Source of the DNA: Synechococcus elongatus PCC 6301
GTDB taxonomy: Bacteria > Cyanobacteriota > Cyanobacteriia > Synechococcales > Synechococcaceae
Length of the DNA stretch: 32,000 bases
Assembly (NCBI RefSeq): GCF_000010065.1
Contig: NC_006576.1
Span: forward strand, 1,500,001 to 1,532,000
Direction: 5' to 3'
Positions 2,455 through 29,209 of this stretch are shown one piece after another; position 1 is the stretch's first letter, and every line of letters begins with the position of its first letter. The notes under the pieces were generated by a model that was given only the letters and a program-made list of their open reading frames with translations, was not told where the DNA came from and made no database searches. Both the position numbers and the translations under genes were made by a program.

Positions 2455-3939
2455 CTAGCCTTTCAGCTTTTGGTTGAGGATTTGGTTCGAGAGCTTCGGA
2501 TCGACACGCCCACCCGTTTTCTTCATCAGTTGACCCACAAAGAAGCCCTGCAGCTTGGTTTTACCAGCACGGAACTGCTCTAGCTCCGTGGGGTGCGCCG
2601 CCAAAAGTTCATCAACTAGCGCTTCGATCTGCGCCGGATCGGAGATTTGCGTCAGACCCTTCGCTTCCACGATCGCTTTGGGAGAGCCACCTTTTTCCAG
2701 CAGTTCCGGCAGAATTTCCTTGGCAATTTTGCCGCTGATCGTGCCCGCTTCAATCAGGTTGACCAGTTCCGCCAAATCTTGTGGCTGCAGCGGCAGATCC
2801 GATACCAGCAATTTGTTGGCGTTGACGTAGGCCGCGATGTCGCCCATCAGCCAGTTGGCCGCCTGCTTAGCATCCGCACCGGCAGCCACGGTTGCTTCGT
2901 AGTAATCCGCCGTGCTTTTCTCGTCGGTCAGCACCCGCGCATCGTAGGCCGAAAGTCCATATTGCTCAGCGTAGCGATGGCGTTTTTGCGCCGGTAATTC
3001 CGGCAATTCACTGCGCCAGGTTTCCCGCTGAGTCTCGCTGACTTCGATCGGGCCGAGATCTGGTTCAGGGAAGTAGCGATAGTCGCTTGATCCCTCTTTG
3101 GAGCGCATCGACTTGGTGACTTGCTTGCCTTCATCCCAGAGACGAGTCTCTTGGACGATCGGCTCACCCGTTTCGAGGCAGCGAATCTGGCGCTCAATCT
3201 CGAACTCGATCGCCCGTTGAATGGCGTTGAACGAGTTCATATATTTGATTTCGACTTTGGTACCGAATTTCTCGGTGCCCTTGGGGCGAATCGAGATGTT
3301 GACGTCGCAGCGCAGCGAGCCTTCAGCCATGTTGCCGTCGCTGACGCCGAGGTAGCGCATGATCCGGCGCAGTTCTTGGGCGTATTCCGCTGCTTCCTTA
3401 CCCGTACGCAGATCGGGTTCCGAGACGATTTCCGCCAAGGCCACACCAGCGCGGTTGTAGTCCACCAAGGAGTGGGTCGAACCCGCGAGGCGATCGCTCC
3501 CAGCATGGACGAGTTTGCCCGCGTCCTCTTCCATGTGCAGGCGGGTCACGCCAATTTTCTTGGTGTAGGGTTCTTTGCCCTTCTCGGCGACCTCGATTTC
3601 AATCCAGCCATGTTCCGCGATCGGCAGGTCGTACTGCGAGATCTGATAGTTCTTAGGCAGGTCGGGATAGAAATACTGCTTGCGATCGAACTTGCTGTAG
3701 GGCGCAATCTGGCAGTTCAGCGCCAAACCGGCTTTGACGGCATACTCCAGCACCTTCTGGTTCAGCACCGGCAGGGTACCCGGCAGACCCAGCACCACCG
3801 GATCGATATGGGTGTTGGGGTCGGCACCAAACTCCGTCGAGGCGTTGGAGAAAATTTTAGTGGCGGTGCCGAGCTGGACGTGTGTTTCCAGACCGATAAC
3901 TGCTTCGTACTCAGTCTTTACAGGAGCCGTCGCTGTCAT
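2455..3939 (-). CDS. gatB: Asp-tRNA(Asn)/Glu-tRNA(Gln) amidotransferase subunit B
   Basis: The protein shows a full-length GatB signature: YEAVIGLETHVQL, DYNRAGV.L.EIVSEPD, and a C-terminal YqeY/GatB tail ending GFFVGQLMKKTGGRVDP. I prefer the ATG at 3939 (MTATAPVK...) to the TTG at 3954. Confidence 0.95.
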   Translation of the reverse strand: MTATAPVKTEYEAVIGLETHVQLGTATKIFSNASTEFGADPNTHIDPVVLGLPGTLPVLNQKVLEYAVKAGLALNCQIAPYSKFDRKQYFYPDLPKNYQISQYDLPIAEHGWIEIEVAEKGKEPYTKKIGVTRLHMEEDAGKLVHAGSDRLAGSTHSLVDYNRAGVALAEIVSEPDLRTGKEAAEYAQELRRIMRYLGVSDGNMAEGSLRCDVNISIRPKGTEKFGTKVEIKYMNSFNAIQRAIEFEIERQIRCLETGEPIVQETRLWDEGKQVTKSMRSKEGSSDYRYFPEPDLGPIEVSETQRETWRSELPELPAQKRHRYAEQYGLSAYDARVLTDEKSTADYYEATVAAGADAKQAANWLMGDIAAYVNANKLLVSDLPLQPQDLAELVNLIEAGTISGKIAKEILPELLEKGGSPKAIVEAKGLTQISDPAQIEALVDELLAAHPTELEQFRAGKTKLQGFFVGQLMKKTGGRVDPKLSNQILNQKLKG

Positions 3940-4159
3940 AGCACCAAGGGGCAAAACACTTTGCCATTATATCGCTGCCCTTTGCCGATCCTGTCGCTGT
4001 CAGGCATTTAAGGGGGAAAGTAGCAGCGATCGCTTTAGCAGATATCATTACGAGCCTGTTTCCCGCCTGCACACTATCTGTCATTGACCAACAGAATCAG
4101 CCTGCTAAAGAGTGCCCATCTTCCATAGCGAGATCATGCCTCATTGGAGATTGGAAAAA

Positions 4160-5491
4160 TTAGTTTTTACATGACCAAGGAATAGGCACAATGTGGCCCA
4201 CCCAAGTACACGAAATTCTACTTCTGTAGGCACCATTATAATTAAGAATTTTCAGAATGATAAGTTCTAAGTACCACAAGCATATCTTCCAAGTTTCTGT
4301 TCTCACTGCAGAAGAGTGCCTTGCATATTTAACTCGATTTTTTTGAGTTGGATGAGTTATTGTATTTCGCATGGCTGTCATAGCGTCAGCTGAATCCATC
4401 CAATTCTCTGATTTGGCTAACTTAGATAACTCAACTAGTTCAGAAGGAATATCTGCAGACACTCCAGACCAATGAATAAGTAAACGTATTCTTTCAGCTG
4501 CAGAAATCCTCGTATAACCATCATTGCTAAGCCACTTTTCCCGTTCTACAAGAACGGCAGAAGAAAGTAATTCTAGCGCTGTTTGTGCTTGGATTATAGC
4601 TCCTTCTAACCCACCTGAGAATGCGTTAGCAGAAAGATACCAATGCAGGGCTGTTTGAAGAACTTCACGCCAATCCTCATCATCCCATAACGACATAAAA
4701 CTGCTGAATGGATCCTCAAGGACTTTTGAATACTGCATATCAGTCCATGTAAAACAATTTCTAAAGGGATCAACACGTGGACAAGACCATTCCATCACAC
4801 TTAAACCCGAGGAAGATCCATCATTACCAACTGGAAAAACACAGCCTATCCATCTTCCGACTGCGAAAGATAGATATAGAGAAAAAACATCTAGAACTTG
4901 AATACCTTCGCTAAATTGAAATTTAGAACCATCTAATCTTGTCAATCTCACTGAATGAGTGAGAGCATATCCTGACTGCTCACACAGCGAATTAAGTATG
5001 TTTTTATGTCCTTTTTTAGAATCAACAATAATTTTCCAGTCAGAACATATAAATTTAAGCCTAGCTCTACAAGAGGTTCCATCAGCATACATGATTGGGT
5101 CACCATAGATTTCATGTAGATTGACAATAGAGCAATCAATGTAATCCACTCTATATTGGGGATTATGTTGTATTTTTTGGCTCATAAAGCCAAAAATTGA
5201 CTCTTCTAATCCACCTGTGGAAATATGTGAAATCTTGCAATTCTTGATTAGCTTTTTATTTTTAAGATATAGATCGACAGTATCTAGTAATAGTGATTTT
5301 ATTGTTCCTATGGGCAACCCTGTAATAGAAAAGCGAACTGCAGGAATCGGAAGCCAAGTTAGCCAAATTCTTCCATTAGACTGAACCAGTACATCATCAA
5401 CATTGACGTAAATCTCGTCATTGTAAAATTCAATCTCTTGATTTAAATTGGTGGAAAAATGAATATCTTCCAATGCAAGAGGGTAGTTCAT
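4160..5491 (-). CDS. Orphan 443-aa protein with a C-terminal HEPN-like RNxxxH motif; candidate stand-alone HEPN RNase (ApeA-like abortive-infection/defence protein)
   Basis: It is a long uninterrupted ORF in AT-rich DNA, where random long ORFs are unlikely. R375-N-T-I-T-H380 (nt 4352-4369) matches the Rx4-6H HEPN signature, specifically the RNxxxH form. The C-terminal third looks helical (EGAIIQAQTALELLSSAVL...). The N-terminal two thirds have no motif I recognise. Confidence 0.6.
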   Translation of the reverse strand: MNYPLALEDIHFSTNLNQEIEFYNDEIYVNVDDVLVQSNGRIWLTWLPIPAVRFSITGLPIGTIKSLLLDTVDLYLKNKKLIKNCKISHISTGGLEESIFGFMSQKIQHNPQYRVDYIDCSIVNLHEIYGDPIMYADGTSCRARLKFICSDWKIIVDSKKGHKNILNSLCEQSGYALTHSVRLTRLDGSKFQFSEGIQVLDVFSLYLSFAVGRWIGCVFPVGNDGSSSGLSVMEWSCPRVDPFRNCFTWTDMQYSKVLEDPFSSFMSLWDDEDWREVLQTALHWYLSANAFSGGLEGAIIQAQTALELLSSAVLVEREKWLSNDGYTRISAAERIRLLIHWSGVSADIPSELVELSKLAKSENWMDSADAMTAMRNTITHPTQKNRVKYARHSSAVRTETWKICLWYLELIILKILNYNGAYRSRISCTWVGHIVPIPWSCKN

Positions 5492-5525
5492 TGATTGAAT
5501 CTCGGAAAGAATCTAGATAATCATC

Positions 5526-5551
5526 ATGTTGAATTAGGTCTATATTCAACA
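5526..5551 (-). promoter_or_regulatory. Perfect 9-bp inverted repeat (ATGTTGAAT-N8-ATTCAACAT) in the upstream region of the orphan ORF
   Basis: ATGTTGAAT at 5526-5534 pairs with ATTCAACAT at 5543-5551. The repeat lies 35-60 nt upstream of the ATG at 5491 and downstream of the fructokinase stop. It could be an operator, or a terminator for the fructokinase gene. Confidence 0.3.
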
Positions 5552-5608
5552 TCCTTGTTTTGGCTTTGTATCTCAATTAAATTATTAGTTAATTTGCTGT
5601 TTAGATAG

Positions 5609-6583
5609 TTAAGTTTTAGATAGTAAAGATTGAATAGCATCAGAAGTCGGCTGAGCTGCGATCGCGCCAGGATTCAGGGTCGTCAAGGCACCAGCAGCAC
5701 TAGCCCAGCGAATCGCTGTTTGCACCTGCTCTGCGCTCGTCCACTGGAAGTCCATTTGCGTGTTTTGCGCTAGCCAAGCAGCGACAAATGCATCTCCCGC
5801 GCCGGTCGTATCGATCGCCTTTACCGGAAAAGAGGGACAGTGACCCTGCCAACCAGCAACCCAGTAGTGGCAGCCGCGATCGCCATCCGTAATCAATACT
5901 GCTTGTAGCTGCGGTTGTCGGGCTTGAATTGTTGCTGGATCAACCGTGTCGAACAGCCATTCCGCTTCTTCTCTCGCTAATTTCAACTGCTGAATTTGAG
6001 GCAGGATGGCACGAATGCGATCGGGAGCCAAACTGGGATCAGGCCAGAAACTTGGTCGCCAGTTGACATCCAAGAGAACGGTCATTCCCTGCTGATTGGC
6101 CCAAGTCAGCGCTTGCTGCGCCGCGATCGCACTACTGGGATAAGCCAGCGGAATCGTGCCTAAGCAGAGCACTTTGGCCAAACGAAACCAAGCCTGCGGC
6201 AACTGCTCCGCTTGCAGTTCCGTATCCGCAAATTGATCGCAAGCGATCGCGCCAAACCCTCCGAACTGGCGATCGCCCTGAGCGGTTCGCAGCACTTGCA
6301 CCTGTCGGGTCGGCAGGCGGGGATGCCGCTGCACCGCCGCGATCGCCACGCCATTGTCTTGGAGAACTTGAAAGAGGCGATCGCCTTCAGGATCAGAACC
6401 GAGGCAGGTAATCAGTCCCGACTGAACACCAAGCTTGACTAGCGCCGTTGCAACATTGGCGGGAGCACCCCCCGGCCAAGGTGTCCAACTTTGCACCTGT
6501 TCCGCCGGAAGATCGCGATCGTTGGCCAAACAATCCCAGAGCATTTCTCCCAGACAGATGACCGTTGGCGCTTGGGCTGTCAT
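5609..6583 (-). CDS. PfkB-family carbohydrate kinase (fructokinase-like)
   Basis: The protein carries the PfkB signatures GGAPANVA near the N-terminus and DTTGAGDAF near the C-terminus. At 324 aa its length is typical. Confidence 0.85.
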   Translation of the reverse strand: MTAQAPTVICLGEMLWDCLANDRDLPAEQVQSWTPWPGGAPANVATALVKLGVQSGLITCLGSDPEGDRLFQVLQDNGVAIAAVQRHPRLPTRQVQVLRTAQGDRQFGGFGAIACDQFADTELQAEQLPQAWFRLAKVLCLGTIPLAYPSSAIAAQQALTWANQQGMTVLLDVNWRPSFWPDPSLAPDRIRAILPQIQQLKLAREEAEWLFDTVDPATIQARQPQLQAVLITDGDRGCHYWVAGWQGHCPSFPVKAIDTTGAGDAFVAAWLAQNTQMDFQWTSAEQVQTAIRWASAAGALTTLNPGAIAAQPTSDAIQSLLSKT

Positions 6584-14508: not shown

Positions 14509-16229
14509 AACTGGCGATCGCGCAACTTAATCCCACGATTGGGGATTTGACCGGTAATACCCAAGCGATTGTGGCGGTGGCTCGGGAAGCCCAACAAGCA
14601 GGAGCGCGATTGCTGTTGACGCCGGAACTGTCGCTCTGCGGCTACCCACCTCGCGATTTGCTGCTGTTACCCGATTTTCTGGCGGCGATCGCTGATCAGC
14701 TTGAGCAACTCTGTCGCGAAGCCCCAAAGGATATTGCACTGCTGGTGGGTGCTCCGCTGCCGAATCCGCAAGCGGGCATTGAGGGCGGCAAGCCGCTGTT
14801 CAATGGCGCGGTGCTGATTGAGAACGGTGAAATCCGCGATCGCTTCTACAAACAGTTGCTACCCACCTACGACGTCTTTGATGAAGACCGCTATTTTCAG
14901 TCGGGGCAAGGCGGTTGGTTTGACCTCCAAGCGGAGGGAGAAACCCTGAGAGTGGGGGTCAGCATTTGCGAAGACCTTTGGAATGAACCGGAGTTCTGGG
15001 GAGAGCGTCGCTACGAATCGGATCCGATCGCGGCCTTAGTGGCTGATCAAATTGACTTGCTGGTCAATCTTTCGGCTTCGCCCTACTGCTTTGGCAAACC
15101 CAAACTGCGCGAAGCCCTACTCCGGCATACCTGTCGCCGCTATCAAATTCCGTTGCTCTACGCCAATCAAGTCGGCGGCAATGATGACCTGATTTTTGAT
15201 GGCAACAGCTTTGTCCTGAATGCCGCAGGTGAGGTTTTGCAGAGAGGTAAACACTGCCAAGCTGAATTGCTGATCGTAGATTGGCAGCAGATCCAATTGG
15301 CACCTGCAACTACAGCGATCGCCTCTCCATCACTCACAGAGTCACAACAGGATTTAGCTGAACTCTGGGAAGTGTTGGTGCTCGGACTGCGAGATTACAC
15401 CCGTAAGTGTGGCTTCAAAAGCATTGTCTTGGGGCTAAGTGGTGGGATTGACTCAGCATTGGTTGCTGCTTTAGCTGCTGCTGCGATCGAGGCAGAGAAT
15501 GTGCTCGCGATTCTGATGCCTTCACCCTACAGTTCCGATCACTCAATTACGGATGCGATCGCCCTAGCCGAGAATCTTCAGATTCGCCATGAAACGATCG
15601 CAATCGCACCCTTGATGACGGCTTTTGAACATTCGCTATCGGACTTATTCGCAGGGCGATCGCCGGATGTCACGGAAGAGGATATCCAATCGCGGATTCG
15701 CGGCACTTTACTGATGGCAGCAGCCAATAAATTGGGATCACTTCTGGTTACAACGGGGAATAAGTCAGAGCTAGCCGTTGGCTATTGCACGCTCTACGGC
15801 GATATGAATGGCGGCCTCGCAGCGATCGCAGATCTACCCAAAACTTGGGTCTATCAGTTGTGTCACTGGTTAAATTCTGAAGCGGCAGCCGAGGTGCGAT
15901 CGCAACACTTTCCACAAGCTCCAACAGAAATTATCCCTGACTCAATCCTCACCAAAGCCCCGAGTGCAGAACTTCGGCCCGATCAAGTCGATCAGGATTC
16001 ACTACCAGACTATGCAGTCTTGGATGATATTTTGGTACGGCTGATTGAAAAACATCAGTCCCGCAAGGAGATTTTAGCGGCAGGTCATTCTTCTGAAGTT
16101 CTTGATAAAGTGCTTGGCCTTGTTCGCCGTGCTGAATTCAAACGCAAGCAAGCAGCACCAGGACTGAAAGTGAGCGATCGCGCCTTTGGAACCGGTTGGC
16201 GGATGCCGATCGCTTGTCGTTGGGGCTAA
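14505..16229 (+). CDS. nadE: Glutamine-dependent NAD+ synthetase
   Basis: The N-terminus is a CN-hydrolase domain (MKLAIAQLNPTIGDL..., SICEDLW) and the C-terminus is a synthetase domain with the PP-loop LGLSGGIDS. The ATG at 14505 is in frame with, and preferred over, the track start at 14325, which lies inside nadD. Confidence 0.92.
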   Translation: MKLAIAQLNPTIGDLTGNTQAIVAVAREAQQAGARLLLTPELSLCGYPPRDLLLLPDFLAAIADQLEQLCREAPKDIALLVGAPLPNPQAGIEGGKPLFNGAVLIENGEIRDRFYKQLLPTYDVFDEDRYFQSGQGGWFDLQAEGETLRVGVSICEDLWNEPEFWGERRYESDPIAALVADQIDLLVNLSASPYCFGKPKLREALLRHTCRRYQIPLLYANQVGGNDDLIFDGNSFVLNAAGEVLQRGKHCQAELLIVDWQQIQLAPATTAIASPSLTESQQDLAELWEVLVLGLRDYTRKCGFKSIVLGLSGGIDSALVAALAAAAIEAENVLAILMPSPYSSDHSITDAIALAENLQIRHETIAIAPLMTAFEHSLSDLFAGRSPDVTEEDIQSRIRGTLLMAAANKLGSLLVTTGNKSELAVGYCTLYGDMNGGLAAIADLPKTWVYQLCHWLNSEAAAEVRSQHFPQAPTEIIPDSILTKAPSAELRPDQVDQDSLPDYAVLDDILVRLIEKHQSRKEILAAGHSSEVLDKVLGLVRRAEFKRKQAAPGLKVSDRAFGTGWRMPIACRWG

Positions 16230-16425
16230 CTGAATTTCACATTAGATATAGTTATTCATGACGGCATCAAGAAATGCACTAAAACTTGTGAATGACATCA
16301 GGCTAGGCTTTCAACAATTTGTCATCCCCATACAGCGAGATGCAAGAATAAAAAATGTTTGCAGCCGACAATAATTGTTCTGGAGCAACTATAAGAGATC
16401 GCTGACTTCTAATTAGGAGAAGCTA

Positions 16426-17250
16426 ATGAACTATGCACTCCCCCTAACTGCTTTTGTTGGGAGCTTCACTTTAATGCTCTTGGTAGGGGCACCAGTAAAG
16501 GCTTGTCCACCGGGTCACTATCAAATGGGTGGTGGCAATGCTGGTTGGGTCGGTTGTGCGCCCATGGATGGTGGCGTAGGTTCAGGGAACAGTGCTCCCA
16601 GCATTGCAGATATGAATATCACTGCTCCCAGATTGTCTACCTACGATGCGAAGCAATGGGTGGATTTCTTTGAGCAAATGGCACAGTCCAGCATCGAGAC
16701 TGAGCGCGAACTAGTTGGCAAGGAAAACCCAGAGGTCTATGAAGCTTTGTTGCAAGGAGTTTGGATCTTTGGCAGTTCGAAGCTGGATAGCAAAGTCCCC
16801 ATGTGTACGGCTACTTTTGCAACCCGACGTGGTGGCGTGATGTTCCAAGATTGGACGGGCGATGAGCCAGGGACATTTCTTGCCTTCTACAACGTCAACA
16901 TTCAGAGGGTGAATCAGGTGAAGCGTGTCCGGGTTCGTCTCGAGCAATCCGGCGAAAGTCAGACAGTCGAAGCGTTCCAGACTAATTACCCGCTTGTGGA
17001 CACGATGGGCATGCTGATGTCTCGCGTGCCCTCAACTGAAGCACTTTTGTCGTCCATCGAAGACAACCAAGATTTCAACATCTACATGCGGGAGTCGGAT
17101 ATCGAAACAAGACGCGGCCTAGGGCTCTTACTCCTTCCGAATCGAGGCAGGAACGATGTTGAATACAAAGTCGTTTCTGGAGAATGGCACAGTGGCCTAT
17201 CTGCCCGCGACGCTCTAAAAGCCTGCATTCAAAAGCGTGATGCTCGCTAA
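16426..17250 (+). CDS. Secreted hypothetical protein (signal peptide, Cys/Gly-rich N-terminal segment)
   Basis: A strong AGGAG sits about 7 nt upstream of the ATG. The N-terminal signal-like segment is LTAFVGSFTLMLLVGAPVKAC. GC is modestly lower than nearby native sequence (28-32 per 60 nt in three sampled lines: 16441, 16681, 17041), and there is no perfect HIP1. Confidence 0.6.
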   Translation: MNYALPLTAFVGSFTLMLLVGAPVKACPPGHYQMGGGNAGWVGCAPMDGGVGSGNSAPSIADMNITAPRLSTYDAKQWVDFFEQMAQSSIETERELVGKENPEVYEALLQGVWIFGSSKLDSKVPMCTATFATRRGGVMFQDWTGDEPGTFLAFYNVNIQRVNQVKRVRVRLEQSGESQTVEAFQTNYPLVDTMGMLMSRVPSTEALLSSIEDNQDFNIYMRESDIETRRGLGLLLLPNRGRNDVEYKVVSGEWHSGLSARDALKACIQKRDAR

Positions 17251-17614
17251 ATCGATGAGATCCCTTGCAGAGATCTTGCAGTCTTGCTCTGACGCCTTAT
17301 TCCCCGCTGAAATGGGGCGTAAGAAGGTTGACATTCACAGCACAGATTGTGATGGGGATACGCCACTTCATGTGATGGTGCGACGGGCTGACTTTGCTGC
17401 AGTTCTAGTGCTAATCGAGGCGGGTGCTAACGTAAATGCGATCGGGGATATGGGTGAAACACCGCTGCACATTGCGGTTCGACAAGAGTTAGAACCGATC
17501 GTGGAAGCCTTGCTGGAGGCTGGATCCAATCCAGATATCCGGTCTGAATTTGGTCAAACTCCCAGAGAGCAGGCTGCAAAGCTTAAAGGCACCATCAAGC
17601 AATTATTTAGGTAG
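17240..17614 (+). CDS. Ankyrin-repeat protein (2-3 repeats)
   Basis: GDTPLHVMVRRADFAAVLVLIEAGANVNAIGDMGETPLHIAVRQELEPIVEALLEAGSNPD fits the ANK consensus (G-TPLH-A...LL..GA..N). Candidate starts are GTG 17237, ATG 17240 and ATG 17255. Each one either overlaps the upstream stop (17248-17250) or follows it within 5 nt. Confidence 0.8.
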   Translation: MLAKSMRSLAEILQSCSDALFPAEMGRKKVDIHSTDCDGDTPLHVMVRRADFAAVLVLIEAGANVNAIGDMGETPLHIAVRQELEPIVEALLEAGSNPDIRSEFGQTPREQAAKLKGTIKQLFR

Positions 17615-17644
17615 CTGCCAATCATCAAGGTATTCCTAGAGCAA

Positions 17645-18217
17645 CTACCAAATTTCGCGGAGATCCAGACTGAAACCAGTGAGGAGTGGATCGGCAGAAA
17701 TGATTTCTGGATTCTCAAGACATTCTGGATCTTGGGACGATCGCCATACTTCTACTTGTCGAAATGTCGGTAGAATCAGCCAGCCGAGCTGACAGCCATT
17801 TGCCAGATATTCTGCAAGTTTGCCACGCAGATCATCTGGGCGATCGCTCGCAGACGCCAGTTCAATTACAAAAGCCGGACAGCCTGGAAAGAACTCATCC
17901 AGGCCTCGTGTCACCGCCCGCGTTAACTGTTCCGGTGTCACCCAAGCAGCATCCGGCGAACGAATCGCACCATTCGGCAAGCGAAAACCCGTTGAAGAGT
18001 CAAAGATAGCGCCTTGTTTGGTTTGCCGGAACCACAGACCAAGCTGTGTGGCGATCGCCTGATTGCGACGGCCACTCTGCCAATGGGTAGGGCTCATTTC
18101 AATTAATTGTCCGTCAGCATCCAACTCAAAGCGGCAATCGGGATTGGCCCGACAAAGCTGCTCAAACTGATGCGGACTGAGGTGGAAGTTCCGAGGAATC
18201 GCAACCATGCTGGCCAC
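17645..18217 (-). CDS. Uma2-family (DUF820) PD-(D/E)xK putative endonuclease
   Basis: The pattern ELDADGQLIEMSPT ... RSPDAAWV ... FVIELASASD is typical of the cyanobacterial Uma2 family. Composition is native and the gene contains HIP1. Confidence 0.7.
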   Translation of the reverse strand: MASMVAIPRNFHLSPHQFEQLCRANPDCRFELDADGQLIEMSPTHWQSGRRNQAIATQLGLWFRQTKQGAIFDSSTGFRLPNGAIRSPDAAWVTPEQLTRAVTRGLDEFFPGCPAFVIELASASDRPDDLRGKLAEYLANGCQLGWLILPTFRQVEVWRSSQDPECLENPEIISADPLLTGFSLDLREIW

Positions 18218-20354: not shown

Positions 20355-20680
20355 CGGTTGTCGCCGTCGCCCTGCAAGACGCCCCGCTGTTGGCGCGATC
20401 GCAGTTTTTCCAAATTGGCTGACGCGATCGCGTCCATCTCGAGTCCCAGTTCCGTCGCCAGTTGCGCCACGTACCAGAGCACATCGCCCAATTCCTTGGC
20501 GATCGCCGCTTGGGTTTCGGCATCGATCTGGCCATGGCGATCGCGAATCACCTTTTTAATTTTCTCGGCCACTTCGCCCGCTTCACCGCACAAGCCTAAG
20601 GTGGGATAGAGAAAGTTACGACCGGCCTGGGGGTAGCAGGCGGTTTGGCGCGACTGTCGCTGGTAGTCCTGAAAATCCAC
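20351..20680 (-). CDS. MazG-like nucleotide pyrophosphohydrolase (single-domain)
   Basis: LCGEAGEVAEKIKK ... ELGDVLWYVAQLATELG matches the MazG/all-alpha NTP-pyrophosphatase EExxE...D pattern. Confidence 0.75.
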   Translation of the reverse strand: MDFQDYQRQSRQTACYPQAGRNFLYPTLGLCGEAGEVAEKIKKVIRDRHGQIDAETQAAIAKELGDVLWYVAQLATELGLEMDAIASANLEKLRSRQQRGVLQGDGDNR

Positions 20681-20795
20681 CGTTGAGTTTCCTCTGCATC
20701 AAAACAGCAATAAGACGGGTCCCTGTTGGTACTATCTTCCGTGAGTCCTGGTCTCTCTTTTCCACGGCTATCCGCCCCATTCGCCTCTGCTGTCG

Positions 20796-22580
20796 ATGCA
20801 ACCCAACGACTTTCAGCGCCGCACTAAAATTGTCGCCACGATTGGCCCTGCAACGTCCAAGCCCGAGGTGCTACGGGCGTTGATCGAAGCTGGCGCATCG
20901 ACATTACGGCTCAATTTCTCCCACGGAACCCACGACGATCATCAGCGCAGCATTCGCCTGATCCGTCAGATCTCCTTCGAGCTCAATCGTCCCGTTGGCA
21001 TTCTGCAAGACTTGCAGGGACCGAAAATCCGCCTCGGTCGTTTTGCCGATGGCCCAATTACAGTCCAAAAGGGTGACTCCTTCATCCTGACCAGCCGCAG
21101 TGTACCGGGCTCGCAAACAATCAGCTCGGTCACCTATGAACCGCTGGCCGATGAAGTGCCGGAAGGCGCAACGATTCTGCTTGATGATGGCCGCGTCGAA
21201 ATGACGGTGGTCAAGGTCGATCGCCAAACTCGTGAGCTGCACTGCGAAGTCGTGGTGGGTGGCATCCTCTCGAATAACAAAGGGGTCAACTTCCCCGGCG
21301 TCTATCTGTCTGTCAAAGCCCTGACGGATAAAGACCGCGAAGACCTGATCTTTGGTCTGGATCAAGGGGTGGACTGGGTCGCCCTCAGCTTTGTCCGCAA
21401 CCCGCAGGATGTTCTCGAAATCAAAGAACTGATCTCTCGGGCTGGGAAGTCAGTGCCCGTGATCGCCAAGATTGAGAAGCACGAAGCGATCGAGCAGATG
21501 GAAGCCGTGCTCTCGCTCTGTGATGGCGTGATGGTGGCGCGGGGTGACCTCGGCGTTGAGCTGCCAGCAGAAGAAGTGCCGATTCTGCAAAAACGACTGA
21601 TTCGCACCGCCAATCGTCTCGGCATTCCGGTGATTACCGCGACCCAAATGCTGGACAGCATGGTCAGCAATCCGCGGCCGACCCGGGCTGAGATTTCGGA
21701 CGTCGCTAACGCCATTCTGGATGGCACCGACGCGGTGATGCTCTCCAACGAAACAGCCGTCGGTAAGTTTCCGATTGAAGCCGTTTCAACCATGGCCACG
21801 ATCGCCCATCGGATCGAAGCTGAGCAGCAATACATCACCCTCAACCCGACGCCGACTAGCTCGATTCCCAATGCGATCAGCCAAGCGGTGGGTCATATCG
21901 CCGAGCAATTAGATGCGGCCGCAATTATGACCCTGACCCAAAGCGGCGCGACAGCCCGCAACGTCTCCAAATTCCGCCCGACCACGCCGATTTTGGCGGT
22001 TACGCCCAACATTGATGTAGCGCGTCAGCTGCAACTGGTTTGGGGCGTGCAGCCGCTTCTGGTCGTTGATTTGCCTTCGACGAGCCAAACCTTCCGCGCT
22101 GCCCTCAACGTCGCCCAAGAGCGCACTTTGCTCAAAGAAGGCGATCTGGTAGTGATGACAGCCGGCACCCTGCCGGGCGTTTCCGGTTCCACTGACTTGG
22201 TCAAGGTCGAAATCGTCACGGCAGTGATTGCTCGGGGGATTGGCGTTGGACAGGGTAGTGTCAGTGGCAAGGCTCGCGTCATCCACAATGCAGCGGAAGC
22301 GGCGACCTTGGCCCAAGGTGAAATTCTGATTGCCACCCAGACCTCAGCGGACTACATCGAAGCGATTCGCAAAGCCAGCGGCATTGTCACGGAAGAGGAA
22401 GGCTTGACCAGCCATGCCGCCGTGATTGGCCTGCGCCTCGGTATTCCCGTGATTGTTGGCGTCAAGAACGCCACTAGCGTCGTGCGTGACGGTTCAATCC
22501 TGACGCTGGATGTGAAGCGCGGGCTACTCTACTCCGGTGCCGTTGGGGCTGTTGCTGCCGAGCAGCCGATTTCCGTCTAA
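20796..22580 (+). CDS. pyk: Pyruvate kinase with a C-terminal PEP-utilizer (phosphohistidine swivel-like) domain
   Basis: The core contains RRTKIVATIGPA, MVARGDLGVE and the rest of a typical pyruvate kinase. An extra domain of about 107 aa (from nt 22257) carries the GLTSHAA motif, with the His codon at 22413-22415. Confidence 0.93.
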   Translation: MQPNDFQRRTKIVATIGPATSKPEVLRALIEAGASTLRLNFSHGTHDDHQRSIRLIRQISFELNRPVGILQDLQGPKIRLGRFADGPITVQKGDSFILTSRSVPGSQTISSVTYEPLADEVPEGATILLDDGRVEMTVVKVDRQTRELHCEVVVGGILSNNKGVNFPGVYLSVKALTDKDREDLIFGLDQGVDWVALSFVRNPQDVLEIKELISRAGKSVPVIAKIEKHEAIEQMEAVLSLCDGVMVARGDLGVELPAEEVPILQKRLIRTANRLGIPVITATQMLDSMVSNPRPTRAEISDVANAILDGTDAVMLSNETAVGKFPIEAVSTMATIAHRIEAEQQYITLNPTPTSSIPNAISQAVGHIAEQLDAAAIMTLTQSGATARNVSKFRPTTPILAVTPNIDVARQLQLVWGVQPLLVVDLPSTSQTFRAALNVAQERTLLKEGDLVVMTAGTLPGVSGSTDLVKVEIVTAVIARGIGVGQGSVSGKARVIHNAAEAATLAQGEILIATQTSADYIEAIRKASGIVTEEEGLTSHAAVIGLRLGIPVIVGVKNATSVVRDGSILTLDVKRGLLYSGAVGAVAAEQPISV

Positions 22581-22594
22581 GCCAGCACCCGTCG

Positions 22595-22620
22595 GAGGCG
22601 ATCGCCTCTTCATTCATTCT
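22595..22620 (+). terminator. Possible intrinsic terminator after pyk (HIP1-centred palindrome plus T-rich tail)
   Basis: GAGGCGATCGCCTC (22595-22608) is a perfect 14-nt palindrome followed by TTCATTCATTCT, and it begins 15 nt after the pyk stop. The tail is only moderately T-rich. Confidence 0.3.
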
Positions 22621-27118: not shown

Positions 27119-27542
27119 TCTCCAACGCTTCGATCGCTCCTGATTACTTGAGTTGATCAAGGCTCAGATCAAGAGCGATCGCTACTTCAATACAGCTTAC
27201 TTTTGGCCGCTATCTCAACAGCAGTTCAATCCTAAGAAACTGCAGAAGCAGGGATTGAGTAATTTGATGGTTGACTGCAGTCCTTATCAGTTGCTTCTCA
27301 ACAATTATCCAACCGCAATTACGGACAGAGCACTGGACTAGCACCACTGCTAAAACCGCAAAGCTCGGACAAATATAAAGACAACTTAAAGATTTTCTAC
27401 GCCCTGCGACCTCACCAGAACAGAGCCACTATCATTTTTAAGAAAACATAAATTGATCCGCTGTAAGCCGCTGCCAGCACAAAGCTTACCGCGTTTTTGC
27501 TAAAGCCTAGTCCGCTGGTTTGTCCTCCCGGAATGTTACCCT

Positions 27543-28292
27543 ATGAAACCCCGCATCCTCGTGATCGATGATGACTCAGCCATCTTGGAGCTGGTCGCCG
27601 TCAATCTGGAGATGTCTGGCTATGACGTACGCAAAGCTGAGGACGGCATTAAAGGTCAGGCTTTAGCTGTTCAGCTAGTTCCCGACCTGATCATGCTGGA
27701 TCTAATGCTGCCGCGGGTTGATGGCTTTACCGTCTGTCAGCGACTGCGGCGCGATGAGCGTACTGCCGAAATTCCGGTGCTGATGCTGACCGCCCTCGGA
27801 CAGACTCAGGATAAGGTTGAAGGCTTCAACGCGGGTGCTGACGATTATCTGACTAAGCCCTTCGAAGTTGAAGAGATGCTGGCCCGCGTGCGTGCCTTGC
27901 TGCGGCGCACCGATCGCATTCCCCATGCAGCCCGCCATAGCGAAATTCTCAGCTACGGTCCGCTGACCCTGATTCCCGAGCGGTTTGAGGCCATTTGGTT
28001 CAACCGCACGGTCAAGCTGACTCACTTGGAATTTGAGTTGTTGCACTGCCTGTTGCAACGCCACGGCCAAACGGTTGCGCCGAGCGAAATCCTCAAAGAA
28101 GTCTGGGGCTATGATCCCGACGATGACATCGAGACGATTCGCGTCCACATCCGTCATCTGCGCACCAAGCTCGAGCCCGATCCCCGGCACCCGCGCTACA
28201 TCAAAACGGTCTATGGAGCGGGCTACTGCCTTGAGCTGCCGGCCGAGACGGAACTCCACCAACACGCCGATCAGTTTCCTTCGGCGTCCTGA
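27543..28292 (+). CDS. rpaA: OmpR-family response regulator RpaA (circadian clock output regulator)
   Basis: The 249-aa protein begins [11 protein letters not shown], has its receiver Asp in IMLDLMLP, and ends in a winged-helix domain ([13 protein letters not shown]...[10 protein letters not shown]). It matches my memory of S. elongatus RpaA. Confidence 0.9.
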
Positions 28293-29209
28293 ACCCAAGC
28301 ACTGAGCAGCACTTCCCAGACGAGTCGCGGCTGAACAAAGGCTCGCAGTTGTTTCTGTGCCTGTTCGAGCTGGAGCAGTTGCTGGGACTGCAGCTGTTGC
28401 TGGGACCAGCCCTGCTGCTGGAGGTAGCGACAAAGCCAAAGCTGGGCTTCGACGTCGAGGCCAGCATCGATCGCTTGCGCCAGTTCCAAAGCCACTTGCA
28501 AAGAGTTTGGCCGTTGCTGAAGGCGATCGCGCAATTCTGGCGGGATTGCTTGCAGTTGTTGCCAATGGCTGATAGCTGCTCCTGGACTGCCTTGAGCTAA
28601 GGCCAGAACCGCTGGCGCGTCGAGAATTTCTGTAAAGCCGTGGGTCTGCAAAATTTGCGCCATCGCCTGCTCAGAAAGGCGATAGAAGGGAATTCGCTGG
28701 CAACGAGAAACAAGGGTTGGCAGTAGCAGCTCAGGACTCGGTGCCATCAGGATAATCGTGGCTTGACCGGGCTCTTCTAGCGTTTTGAGCAACCCATTGG
28801 CTGCCGCCTCAGCCATCGTTTCAGCCTGTTCAATCACCACCAGTGATCGCGGGGCAGCGAGAGGAGGTCGTGCCAGAAACTGAGTGATTTGGCGAATTTG
28901 CTCCAGTCGCACTTGGGGCGGTGTTCGCCGCTGAATTCCCTGGGCTTGGGCTTGACTTGCAGGAATCAAGGTTCCCTGCTGGGAATAAGTCGGCTCAACC
29001 CAGAGCAGATCGGGATGATTGCCGCGAGCGACCCGTCCCGACTGATCAGCCAAGAGGAGCGGTGCCCAACAACGGGCAGCCAGTCCACGACCGGTGCCAT
29101 CAGGACCAGCAAACAGGTAAGCCGGCGCCAAGCGATCGCGATCGCAGGCTGCCAGCAGCAACTGAACGGCAAGGTCTTGACCGATGAGCGGCGCAAAGGG
29201 ATTCATCAC
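28271..29209 (-). CDS. holB: DNA polymerase III delta-prime subunit
   Basis: The motifs [22 protein letters not shown] and [10 protein letters not shown] are typical of HolB. Its ATG overlaps the tmk stop (ATGA). Confidence 0.85.

Follow-up and report, generated by a model that had tools for sequence, protein, structure and literature searches.

The locus and its gene

The stretch of DNA considered here, referred to as the window, spans 32,000 nucleotides of Synechococcus elongatus PCC 6301 (NC_006576.1, positions 1,500,001 to 1,532,000). Between gatB and a PfkB sugar kinase gene, it carries an open reading frame (ORF) of foreign origin whose product belongs to the YopA family. This protein ends in an all-helical domain that is probably a diverged HEPN domain, and within this domain lies a strongly conserved candidate catalytic motif, R375-N376-T-I-T-H380. 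By analogy with ribonucleases (RNases) of the HEPN type that are fused to a sensor, the gene is a plausible phage-defence gene. Its features and those of its surroundings are collected in Table 1.

Table 1. Positions, in the window, of the YopA-family gene, its domains and key codons, and flanking features.
Feature	Position	Strand	Basis or remark
YopA-family ORF, 443 residues, ATG start, complete	4160..5491	-	ORF list
N-terminal beta-rich domain, residues ~1-109	5165..5491	-	six beta strands (AlphaFold2); variable in family
Middle alpha/beta domain (YopA_M), residues ~110-250, proposed sensor/regulatory part	4742..5164	-	conservation, secondary structure
C-terminal all-helical domain (YopA_C), residues ~255-420, proposed HEPN-like RNase domain	4232..4729	-	AlphaFold2, Foldseek, Pfam hits
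E307 codon, acidic residue in helix 294-317, candidate second HEPN active-site acid	4571..4573	-	E in 146/149
R375-N376-T-I-T-H380, candidate catalytic Rx4H motif	4352..4369	-	sequence and conservation
E409 codon, in invariant WYLEL segment of last helix	4265..4267	-	E in 138/149, D in 7
AT-rich 117-nt region 5' of the YopA ORF, presumed promoter/regulatory	5492..5608	-	read from sequence
Low-GC, HIP1-free islet with only the YopA gene, between gatB and pfkB	4130..5610		GC profile and GCGATCGC gap
gatB	2455-3954	-	flanking gene, same strand as the YopA ORF
PfkB sugar kinase gene	5609-6583	-	flanking gene, same strand as the YopA ORF

The protein is identical to a 443-residue product encoded on CP000100.1 (S. 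elongatus PCC 7942). The locus tag of the gene is probably Synpcc7942_0117, as its PfkB neighbour is Synpcc7942_0116 in published papers. The identical protein occurs in 272 blocks of the assembly collection, presumably S. elongatus runs for the most part.

The foreign composition that the original prediction had pointed out is confirmed. The guanine-cytosine (GC) content of the ORF is 37.2%, and 27.9% at third codon positions (GC3), against 57-59% GC and 55-69% GC3 for gatB, pfkB and a photolyase gene. In a 100-nt profile, the fall in GC to 0.28-0.45 is confined to ~4150-~5600. The cyanobacterial HIP1 octamer, the palindrome GCGATCGC, is present in 106 copies in the window, where 1.3 are expected, and has no site within 4034-5657. 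Because low GC is confined to this segment and HIP1 is absent from it, 4130-5610 is read as a one-gene islet, and the YopA gene as being of foreign origin, acquired by horizontal transfer. No integrase, tRNA gene or matching terminal repeats are seen around it. Neither an MNT gene nor any other partner adjoins the ORF in the window, the flanks being gatB and PfkB only. The gene had been described as stand-alone with no antitoxin nearby, and this is correct for the S. elongatus locus but not for many relatives, which are embedded in restriction-modification (R-M) operons.

Membership and spread of the YopA family

The precomputed annotation of the exact protein and of all close homologues assigns the Pfam families YopA_M (PF26308) and YopA_C (PF27216). 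The Pfam-A copy used for the scans described below lacks both, and an empty scan there does not mean that a protein has no Pfam family; seven homologues are also empty in it. In tblastn, the window protein is 24.7% identical over residues 5-443 (99% coverage, E 2e-31) to the YopA of Bacillus phage SPbeta, and further tblastn homologues lie on plasmids of Nostoc, Oscillatoria, Planktothrix, Crinalium, Methylophaga and Escherichia coli. The E. coli gene has recently received the RefSeq (PGAP) name 'YopA family protein'. Twenty-five invariant columns are common to the window protein, SPbeta YopA and the E. coli protein, and include R375, N376, H380, E307 and WYLEL. Judged by its sequence, the window protein is a bona fide member of a family already named and catalogued, although uncharacterised. 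The original prediction had called the system 'undescribed', a term that the existing entries (PF26308/PF27216 and the PGAP name) overtake.

A profile of the N-terminal 250 residues retrieves 3,073 representatives (50% identity) at E<=0.001 and 1,072 at E<=1e-30. Most members have 440-470 residues, and nearly all of the best 150 representatives have 430-490. From the number of representatives and this narrow length range, the family is large and uniform in architecture. Its variants include shorter YopA_M+YopA_C forms of ~300-350 residues that lack the N-terminal domain. Of 5,426 complete E. coli genomes, 19 carry the gene, which occurs there on plasmids as well as on chromosomes. A scan of IMG/VR returned no relatives with the patterns used, and a search with the C-terminal-domain profile for bridging homologues returned YopA_M/YopA_C proteins only. 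On one long-read contig (L026, 5103-6531), YopA_M (282 residues) and YopA_C (176 residues) are called as adjacent genes 50 nt apart, reflecting either a genuinely split form or an error that introduced a frameshift.

A conserved RNxxxH motif

The minus-strand codons CGA AAT ACA ATA ACT CAT, nt 4369-4352, encode R375-N-T-I-T-H380 inside AMRNTITHPTQKN, and both the ORF list and the codons agree with the 443-residue minus-strand ORF and motif placement first proposed. Upstream of R375, at a distance of 59-79 residues, is the helix EGAIIQAQTALELLSSAVLVE (E296-E316), as expected from the long helix that had been placed about 70 residues before the motif. Three Rx4-6H instances are found in the window protein against 1.5 expected, and the RNxxxH form is expected 0.026 times. 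By itself, in one protein, the motif is unremarkable against chance; it is more than chance because it is conserved across the family.

Among 149 diverse full-length YopA relatives, most of them representatives of 50%-identity clusters, 148 retain R375, 147 retain H380 and 144 retain N376, three others having H at the last of these positions. Together with E307, these residues are kept in 97-99% of the relatives and are among the most conserved positions of the protein. A first alignment of 32 homologues shows no variation at R375 and H380 and next to none at N376. The two remaining Rx4-6H instances of the window protein show no conservation among relatives. The weight that the original prediction placed on RNxxxH is thus justified, the motif being the most conserved feature of the family. 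The window ORF is intact and full length, with all family-conserved residues present.

The middle domain contains a second strongly conserved motif, GGYAITHVG (residues 174-181, nt 4949-4972), with G174 conserved at 99%, T178 at 95% and H179 at 90%. This segment may help to form a ligand pocket or the active site. Other conserved residues of this domain are N124, W152, S208, F209, G212, W235 and W249.

Predicted structure and resemblance to HEPN domains

An AlphaFold2 model of the full-length protein, built from the 32-sequence alignment, has a predicted local distance difference test score (pLDDT) of 93.1 and a predicted template modelling score (pTM) of 0.91; the C-terminal domain modelled alone reaches a pLDDT of 90.6. 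Residues 1-235 are beta-rich, with ~15 strands and two helices, and residues 255-415 form helices only, in keeping with the earlier expectation of a helical C-terminal third. The pTM of 0.91 suggests that, in the model, the N-terminal and middle domains are packed tightly on the HEPN-like domain. A Foldseek search of the full-length model against PDB and BFVD yielded noise only (poxin, flavin reductases, PilZ, Hcp and small phage beta proteins), and no fold can be assigned to the N-terminal half for this reason. The N-terminal domain has weak fold matches only, to small beta proteins.

HEPN domains are four-helix up-down bundles with an insert between helices 2 and 3 and an often kinked helix 4 (Anantharaman et al. 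2013, PMC3710099). Their Rx4-6H motif, with a polar N, D or H after the arginine, lies at the end of core helix 3 and the start of the loop to helix 4, and a conserved acid is often found in helix 2, proximal to the motif (PMC3710099). In the C-terminal domain, DSSP assigns helices in two AlphaFold2 models to residues 272-289, 294-317, an insert at 323-362, 367-379 and a kinked 383-390/394-415. R375 and N376 sit in the final part of helix 367-379, and the loop after it opens with H380. E307 resides in helix 294-317, two core helices upstream of the motif, with the helical insert in between. A polar residue after the arginine is present in nearly all of the 149 YopA relatives, and the predicted structure places the motif at a helix end and loop start, followed by a kinked last helix and preceded by an insert. 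As modelled, the layout fits the published HEPN definition point by point.

Searches with the C-terminal domain point in the same direction. HEPN proteins make up 10 of the 50 best Foldseek matches in PDB, namely 1wol, 2q00, the HepT toxins 7ae6, 7ae9, 8xdj and 7bxo, the Csm6 entry 6tug, and IRE1. HEPN structures are also the only PDB matches with a target-normalised template modelling (TM) score above 0.45, in five entries (0.47-0.56). When 105 diverse members of the family were scanned against Pfam at E<=10, HEPN_Apea was the only recurrent match, in 14 of the 105 (best E 0.0056). ApeA_NTD1 was matched by two members (best E 4.6e-4), as was the unrelated HU-CCDC81_bac_2 (best E 0.14). All other families were matched by one member each, among them HEPN_MAE_28990, HEPN_RiboL-PSP and DUF3644; the last of these overlaps a HEPN family (PMC3710099). 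The family consensus matches HEPN_Apea at E 0.016, with residues 361-426 aligned to positions 65-128 of the 136-position profile, a range that spans RNxxxH and the last helix. In one relative (P0361), the middle region (residues 108-274) matches positions 80-269 of the 271 of ApeA_NTD1 at E 4.6e-4. Scanning the 105 relatives against PADLOC gave scattered single weak matches only, to CARF_HEPN, PD-Lambda-5_A and DzbB, and the C-terminal-domain profile found one spurious match only among PDB sequences.

From these sub-threshold similarities and the model, YopA_C is probably a diverged HEPN domain, with the Apea-like HEPN as its nearest curated relative, and YopA_M is probably related, remotely, to ApeA_NTD1; the latter similarity is likewise sub-threshold. 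By any curated sequence threshold, YopA is not a member of the ApeA family.

Genomic context of the relatives

The defence-island context of YopA homologues is strong, and R-M systems of several types recur in it. On two metagenomic contigs, a homologue directly follows hsdR-hsdM-toxin-antitoxin-hsdS on one and hsdM-hsdS-hsdR on the other, both type I R-M arrangements. In a metagenome-assembled genome of Gemmataceae, a homologue lies downstream of a type I restriction endonuclease gene and back-to-back with IetA/IetS. In E. coli, a cassette that combines YopA, type I R-M and two DUF262 genes occurs on an IncY plasmid and also in the chromosome, within an island that has two integrases and adjoins ssb-uvrA. 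Another homologue follows an MmeI-like type IIG enzyme, itself followed by NB-ARC/TPR proteins and an integrase, and yet another stands beside a type III-like methyltransferase/helicase with HepT-MNT. In Frigoriglobus, a homologue adjoins PDC-M32A. Such patchy, mobile spread beside defence genes is what a gene of defence or conflict would be expected to show.

A large TaqI-like methyltransferase and an SNF2 helicase flank YopA on plasmids of Nostoc, where a viperin gene is close by, and of Planktothrix. The cassette (L030, 3304-11571 in Nostoc; L031, 3247-13120 in Planktothrix) consists of a TaqI-like methyltransferase of ~1,100 residues, a small ORF, YopA and an SNF2/helicase of ~1,100 residues; in Planktothrix, a sigma-factor gene stands between the last two. 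It may be a multi-gene system resembling R-M, with YopA as a component.

In Synechococcus sp. Cruz-7E5 (L001, 9986-13508), an islet of 48-52% GC in a genome of 62-69% GC carries a YopA homologue, a TIR/nucleoside deoxyribosyltransferase-like protein (PADLOC TIR effector, E 1.8e-9) and an HSDR_N_2 protein. Its flanking terminase-like and DUF4055 genes suggest a prophage-like region.

Comparison with known systems

SPbeta YopA shares with the window protein full-length homology, the three-part layout, RNxxxH, the E307 equivalent and WYLEL. It is only 25% identical, however, and is prophage-borne, whereas the window gene is chromosomal in a cyanobacterium.

ApeA (PF18739 HEPN, PF18862 NTD1) is a single-protein abortive-infection system, a tRNA anticodon nuclease activated by deoxydinucleotides (bioRxiv 10.64898/2026.01.26.701840). 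Like YopA, it has the order N-terminal, middle and C-terminal HEPN domain and no partner gene, and the two families share the sub-threshold similarity in the HEPN and NTD1 regions described above. ApeA is closest in fold to HepT, and HepT likewise ranks with the best TM matches of the YopA C-terminal domain. The ApeA family has also been noted in R-M operons (PMC3710099). In contrast, the E. coli ApeA proteins have ~580 residues and predominantly helical N-terminal and middle domains, whereas YopA has 443 residues and a beta-rich N-terminal half. The window protein and most of its relatives reach no ApeA model, Pfam keeps YopA as separate families, and no ApeA structures appeared among the PDB fold matches of YopA. 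The resemblance to ApeA that had been suggested therefore survives as remote similarity within the family but not as a match of the window protein itself. Of the systems compared, YopA would work most like ApeA, yet it fails the tests of ApeA membership.

HepT (DUF86) has identical RNxxxH spacing, and its structures 7bxo and 8xdj reach the highest target-normalised TM scores. YopA differs in having no MNT antitoxin and in the ~40-residue helical insert and extra helices of YopA_C, as well as its large N-terminal domains. A profile-profile comparison of the two with hhalign was rejected as evidence of homology, with the YopA tail paired with HepT helix 2 and alternative alignments worse. Its best alignment sets YopA 407-441 (LELxLLRLFxYxGxYxNR...VPW) against HepT 37-71, which is helix 2 and a loop (LxLALVRLxEIxGEAATRVP...IPW). 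This HepT segment precedes Rx4H, hinting at a circular permutation, but the hhalign probability is only 25%.

Like YopA, PrrC and RloC have an HEPN-type Rx4-6H effector often found in or next to R-M operons (PMC3710099). YopA lacks their ABC-ATPase domain, and the S. elongatus and SPbeta copies lack adjacent R-M genes. By analogy, the R-M linkage of other YopA relatives suggests that, in some lineages, the protein may act as a PrrC/RloC-like guard or back-up when restriction is disabled.

DARNA (PD-T7-3) is an HEPN tRNA anticodon nuclease switched on by the single-stranded DNA that the phage SSB presents. It resembles what is proposed for YopA in being a single-protein HEPN defence whose second domain senses an infection cue, but its order is reversed, with an N-terminal HEPN and a helical C-terminal sensor. 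Because of this reversed order and the lack of a PADLOC PD-T7-3 match, DARNA was rejected as the identity of the window protein.

Proposed function and alternatives

On balance, it is somewhat more likely than not that the horizontally acquired YopA gene works as a single-protein conflict or defence module, its product being an HEPN RNase that is latent, fused to a sensor and active in abortive infection, and that its family is a sister of ApeA. HEPN-likeness, an ApeA-like layout and the defence context of homologues converge on this reading, each line being sub-threshold. The C-terminal ~170 residues would form a diverged HEPN-type domain distantly related to Apea-like HEPN, in which R375, N376 and H380, helped by E307, make up a predicted metal-independent RNase site. 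Homodimerisation would complete this site, as it does in other HEPN enzymes. Packed on the HEPN domain, the middle domain and the beta-rich N-terminal domain would keep it latent, while sensing an infection cue, which may be a small ligand, a nucleic acid or the loss of a partner restriction system. Once activated, it would cleave RNA of the cell, probably mRNA or the anticodon loops of tRNA, leading to growth arrest and thereby aborting phage replication. This latent, sensor-gated mechanism is proposed by analogy with the sensor-fused HEPN defence proteins ApeA and DARNA.

Several results weigh against this reading. The window protein has no matches in the Pfam (E<=10), PADLOC, NCBIfam, PHROGs and PDB-sequence scans; a single NCBIfam match at E 0.11 is noise. 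The scan of PADLOC-DB 2.0 is empty even at E<=10, with its HEPN and ApeA models included. Among the relatives, all HEPN profile matches fall under the curated cut-offs of Pfam (for HEPN_Apea, 16.1 bits against a gathering cut-off of 24.4), and the PADLOC ApeA models match none of the 105 members. The HEPN matches from Foldseek are non-significant, with E values of 2.6 or more and root-mean-square deviations of 5-9 Å for the best-fitting. The hhalign comparison of YopA_C with a 26-sequence HepT alignment gives a probability of 25% and leaves the Rx4H motifs unaligned. At the S. elongatus locus, no defence genes neighbour the ORF, and a consensus promoter scan of 5492-5608 finds nothing above chance. 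Literature searches on the family name, its Pfam accessions and the gene's locus tag yielded no study of YopA function.

The checks that the original prediction had laid out thus gave mixed answers. The Pfam scan, HEPN families included, and the PADLOC scan found no match to the window protein at E<=10. The structural check returned a confident model (pLDDT 93), and in the Foldseek search with its C-terminal domain HEPN structures alone exceed a target-normalised TM score of 0.45, but with a best E of 2.6. The proposed HEPN domain is supported by predicted motif position and layout but not by a significant profile or fold match. The proposed role in defence draws on the strong defence-island context of the homologues, but the window protein itself has no PADLOC match.

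It is rather unlikely that the protein is an HEPN-type RNase whose role is not host defence, namely a selfish addiction or stabilisation toxin of mobile elements, with the phage copies serving in superinfection exclusion or counter-defence and the S. elongatus copy being a stranded passenger. Many HEPN proteins are the toxins of toxin-antitoxin systems, and the namesake of the family is phage-encoded: the accessory gene yopA of SPbeta is monocistronic and has a terminator to itself, and its neighbours in this moron-like region are a RES-domain toxin gene and a Sie-like gene. Relatives are also found on plasmids, next to integrases or transposases, in an integrase/DnaB element and beside PIN toxin-antitoxin arrays. 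However, a cognate antitoxin or conserved partner gene was seen in none of about 25 contexts, and the idea of such a partner was dropped. The tightest recurrent linkage is with R-M operons and further defence systems, a pattern that defence genes show. As prophage morons often defend the lysogen, the boundary between a selfish toxin and the sensor-gated defence RNase favoured here is soft.

The C-terminal bundle is unlikely not to be an HEPN nuclease at all, with R375, N376, H380 and E307 binding a ligand or catalysing another reaction and the short motif alone driving the weak HEPN matches. Convergence produces four-helix bundles repeatedly, HEPN-like domains include some binding modules without catalysis (PMC3710099), and the missing significant profile, profile-profile and fold matches would be explained. 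Against this, the weak matches concentrate on HEPN families in two libraries and in PDB, and the HEPN_Apea match covers ~65 residues over two helices, well beyond the motif. The N-terminal half independently matches ApeA_NTD1, and motif position, the polar asparagine after the arginine and the upstream acid fit the catalytic HEPN pattern. It is very unlikely that the S. elongatus gene no longer has a function and merely survives, silent or decaying, from a past transfer. Its composition is strongly foreign and unameliorated, no promoter-like site lies upstream, and it has no partner genes, although relatives are often found in operons; yet the ORF is intact with every family-conserved residue, the identical protein recurs across the assembly collection, and consensus sigma-70 scans predict poorly in cyanobacteria.

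A broader extension of the sensor-gated RNase reading concerns the family as a whole. It is quite possible, if short of probable, that YopA is a widespread anti-phage system of one protein that has gone unrecognised, a sister to ApeA whose HEPN RNase is gated by a beta domain and which is often coupled to R-M as a back-up for when restriction is disabled, and that Synpcc7942_0117 is a functional copy. The family comprises at least 3,000 clusters (50% identity) from cyanobacteria, planctomycetes, proteobacteria, actinobacteria, SPbeta and E. coli plasmids. YopA is absent from PADLOC 2.0.

If this reading is right, a family without a function gains a mechanism and joins ApeA, DARNA, PrrC and RloC as sensor-gated HEPN RNases, one currently missed by PADLOC-type annotation. 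Its embedding in type I, type IIG and methyltransferase-helicase operons would offer a testable case of R-M guarding without the PrrC ATPase. S. elongatus PCC 7942 serves as a workhorse of genetics and biotechnology, little of whose phage defence is known to have been characterised, and a single, easily deleted gene would be a convenient entry to it. A defensive role for YopA is credible, yet it would not surprise a specialist. If the reading is wrong, the locus is still a clean example of a recent single-gene insertion in a housekeeping region.

Minor features of the window

At the edge of the low-GC islet, ACTATCTAAA occurs twice, 15 nt apart, at 5600-5624, over the pfkB stop codon. This pair could be an insertion scar. 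A target-site duplication flanking the islet was considered and dropped, as a 10-nt direct repeat at one end has no counterpart at the other. The AT-rich region upstream of the ORF contains a perfect inverted repeat, TGTTGAAT-N9-ATTCAACA, at 5527-5551, which could be an operator or the stem of a pfkB terminator.

Elsewhere in the window, other long HIP1-free stretches of lower GC lie at 16182-17839, 20545-22597 and 27183-28522. An ORF of 274 residues (16426-17250, plus strand), which has no Pfam match, is located in a HIP1-free stretch of 48% GC adjoining an NAD synthase gene and may be another small foreign insertion.

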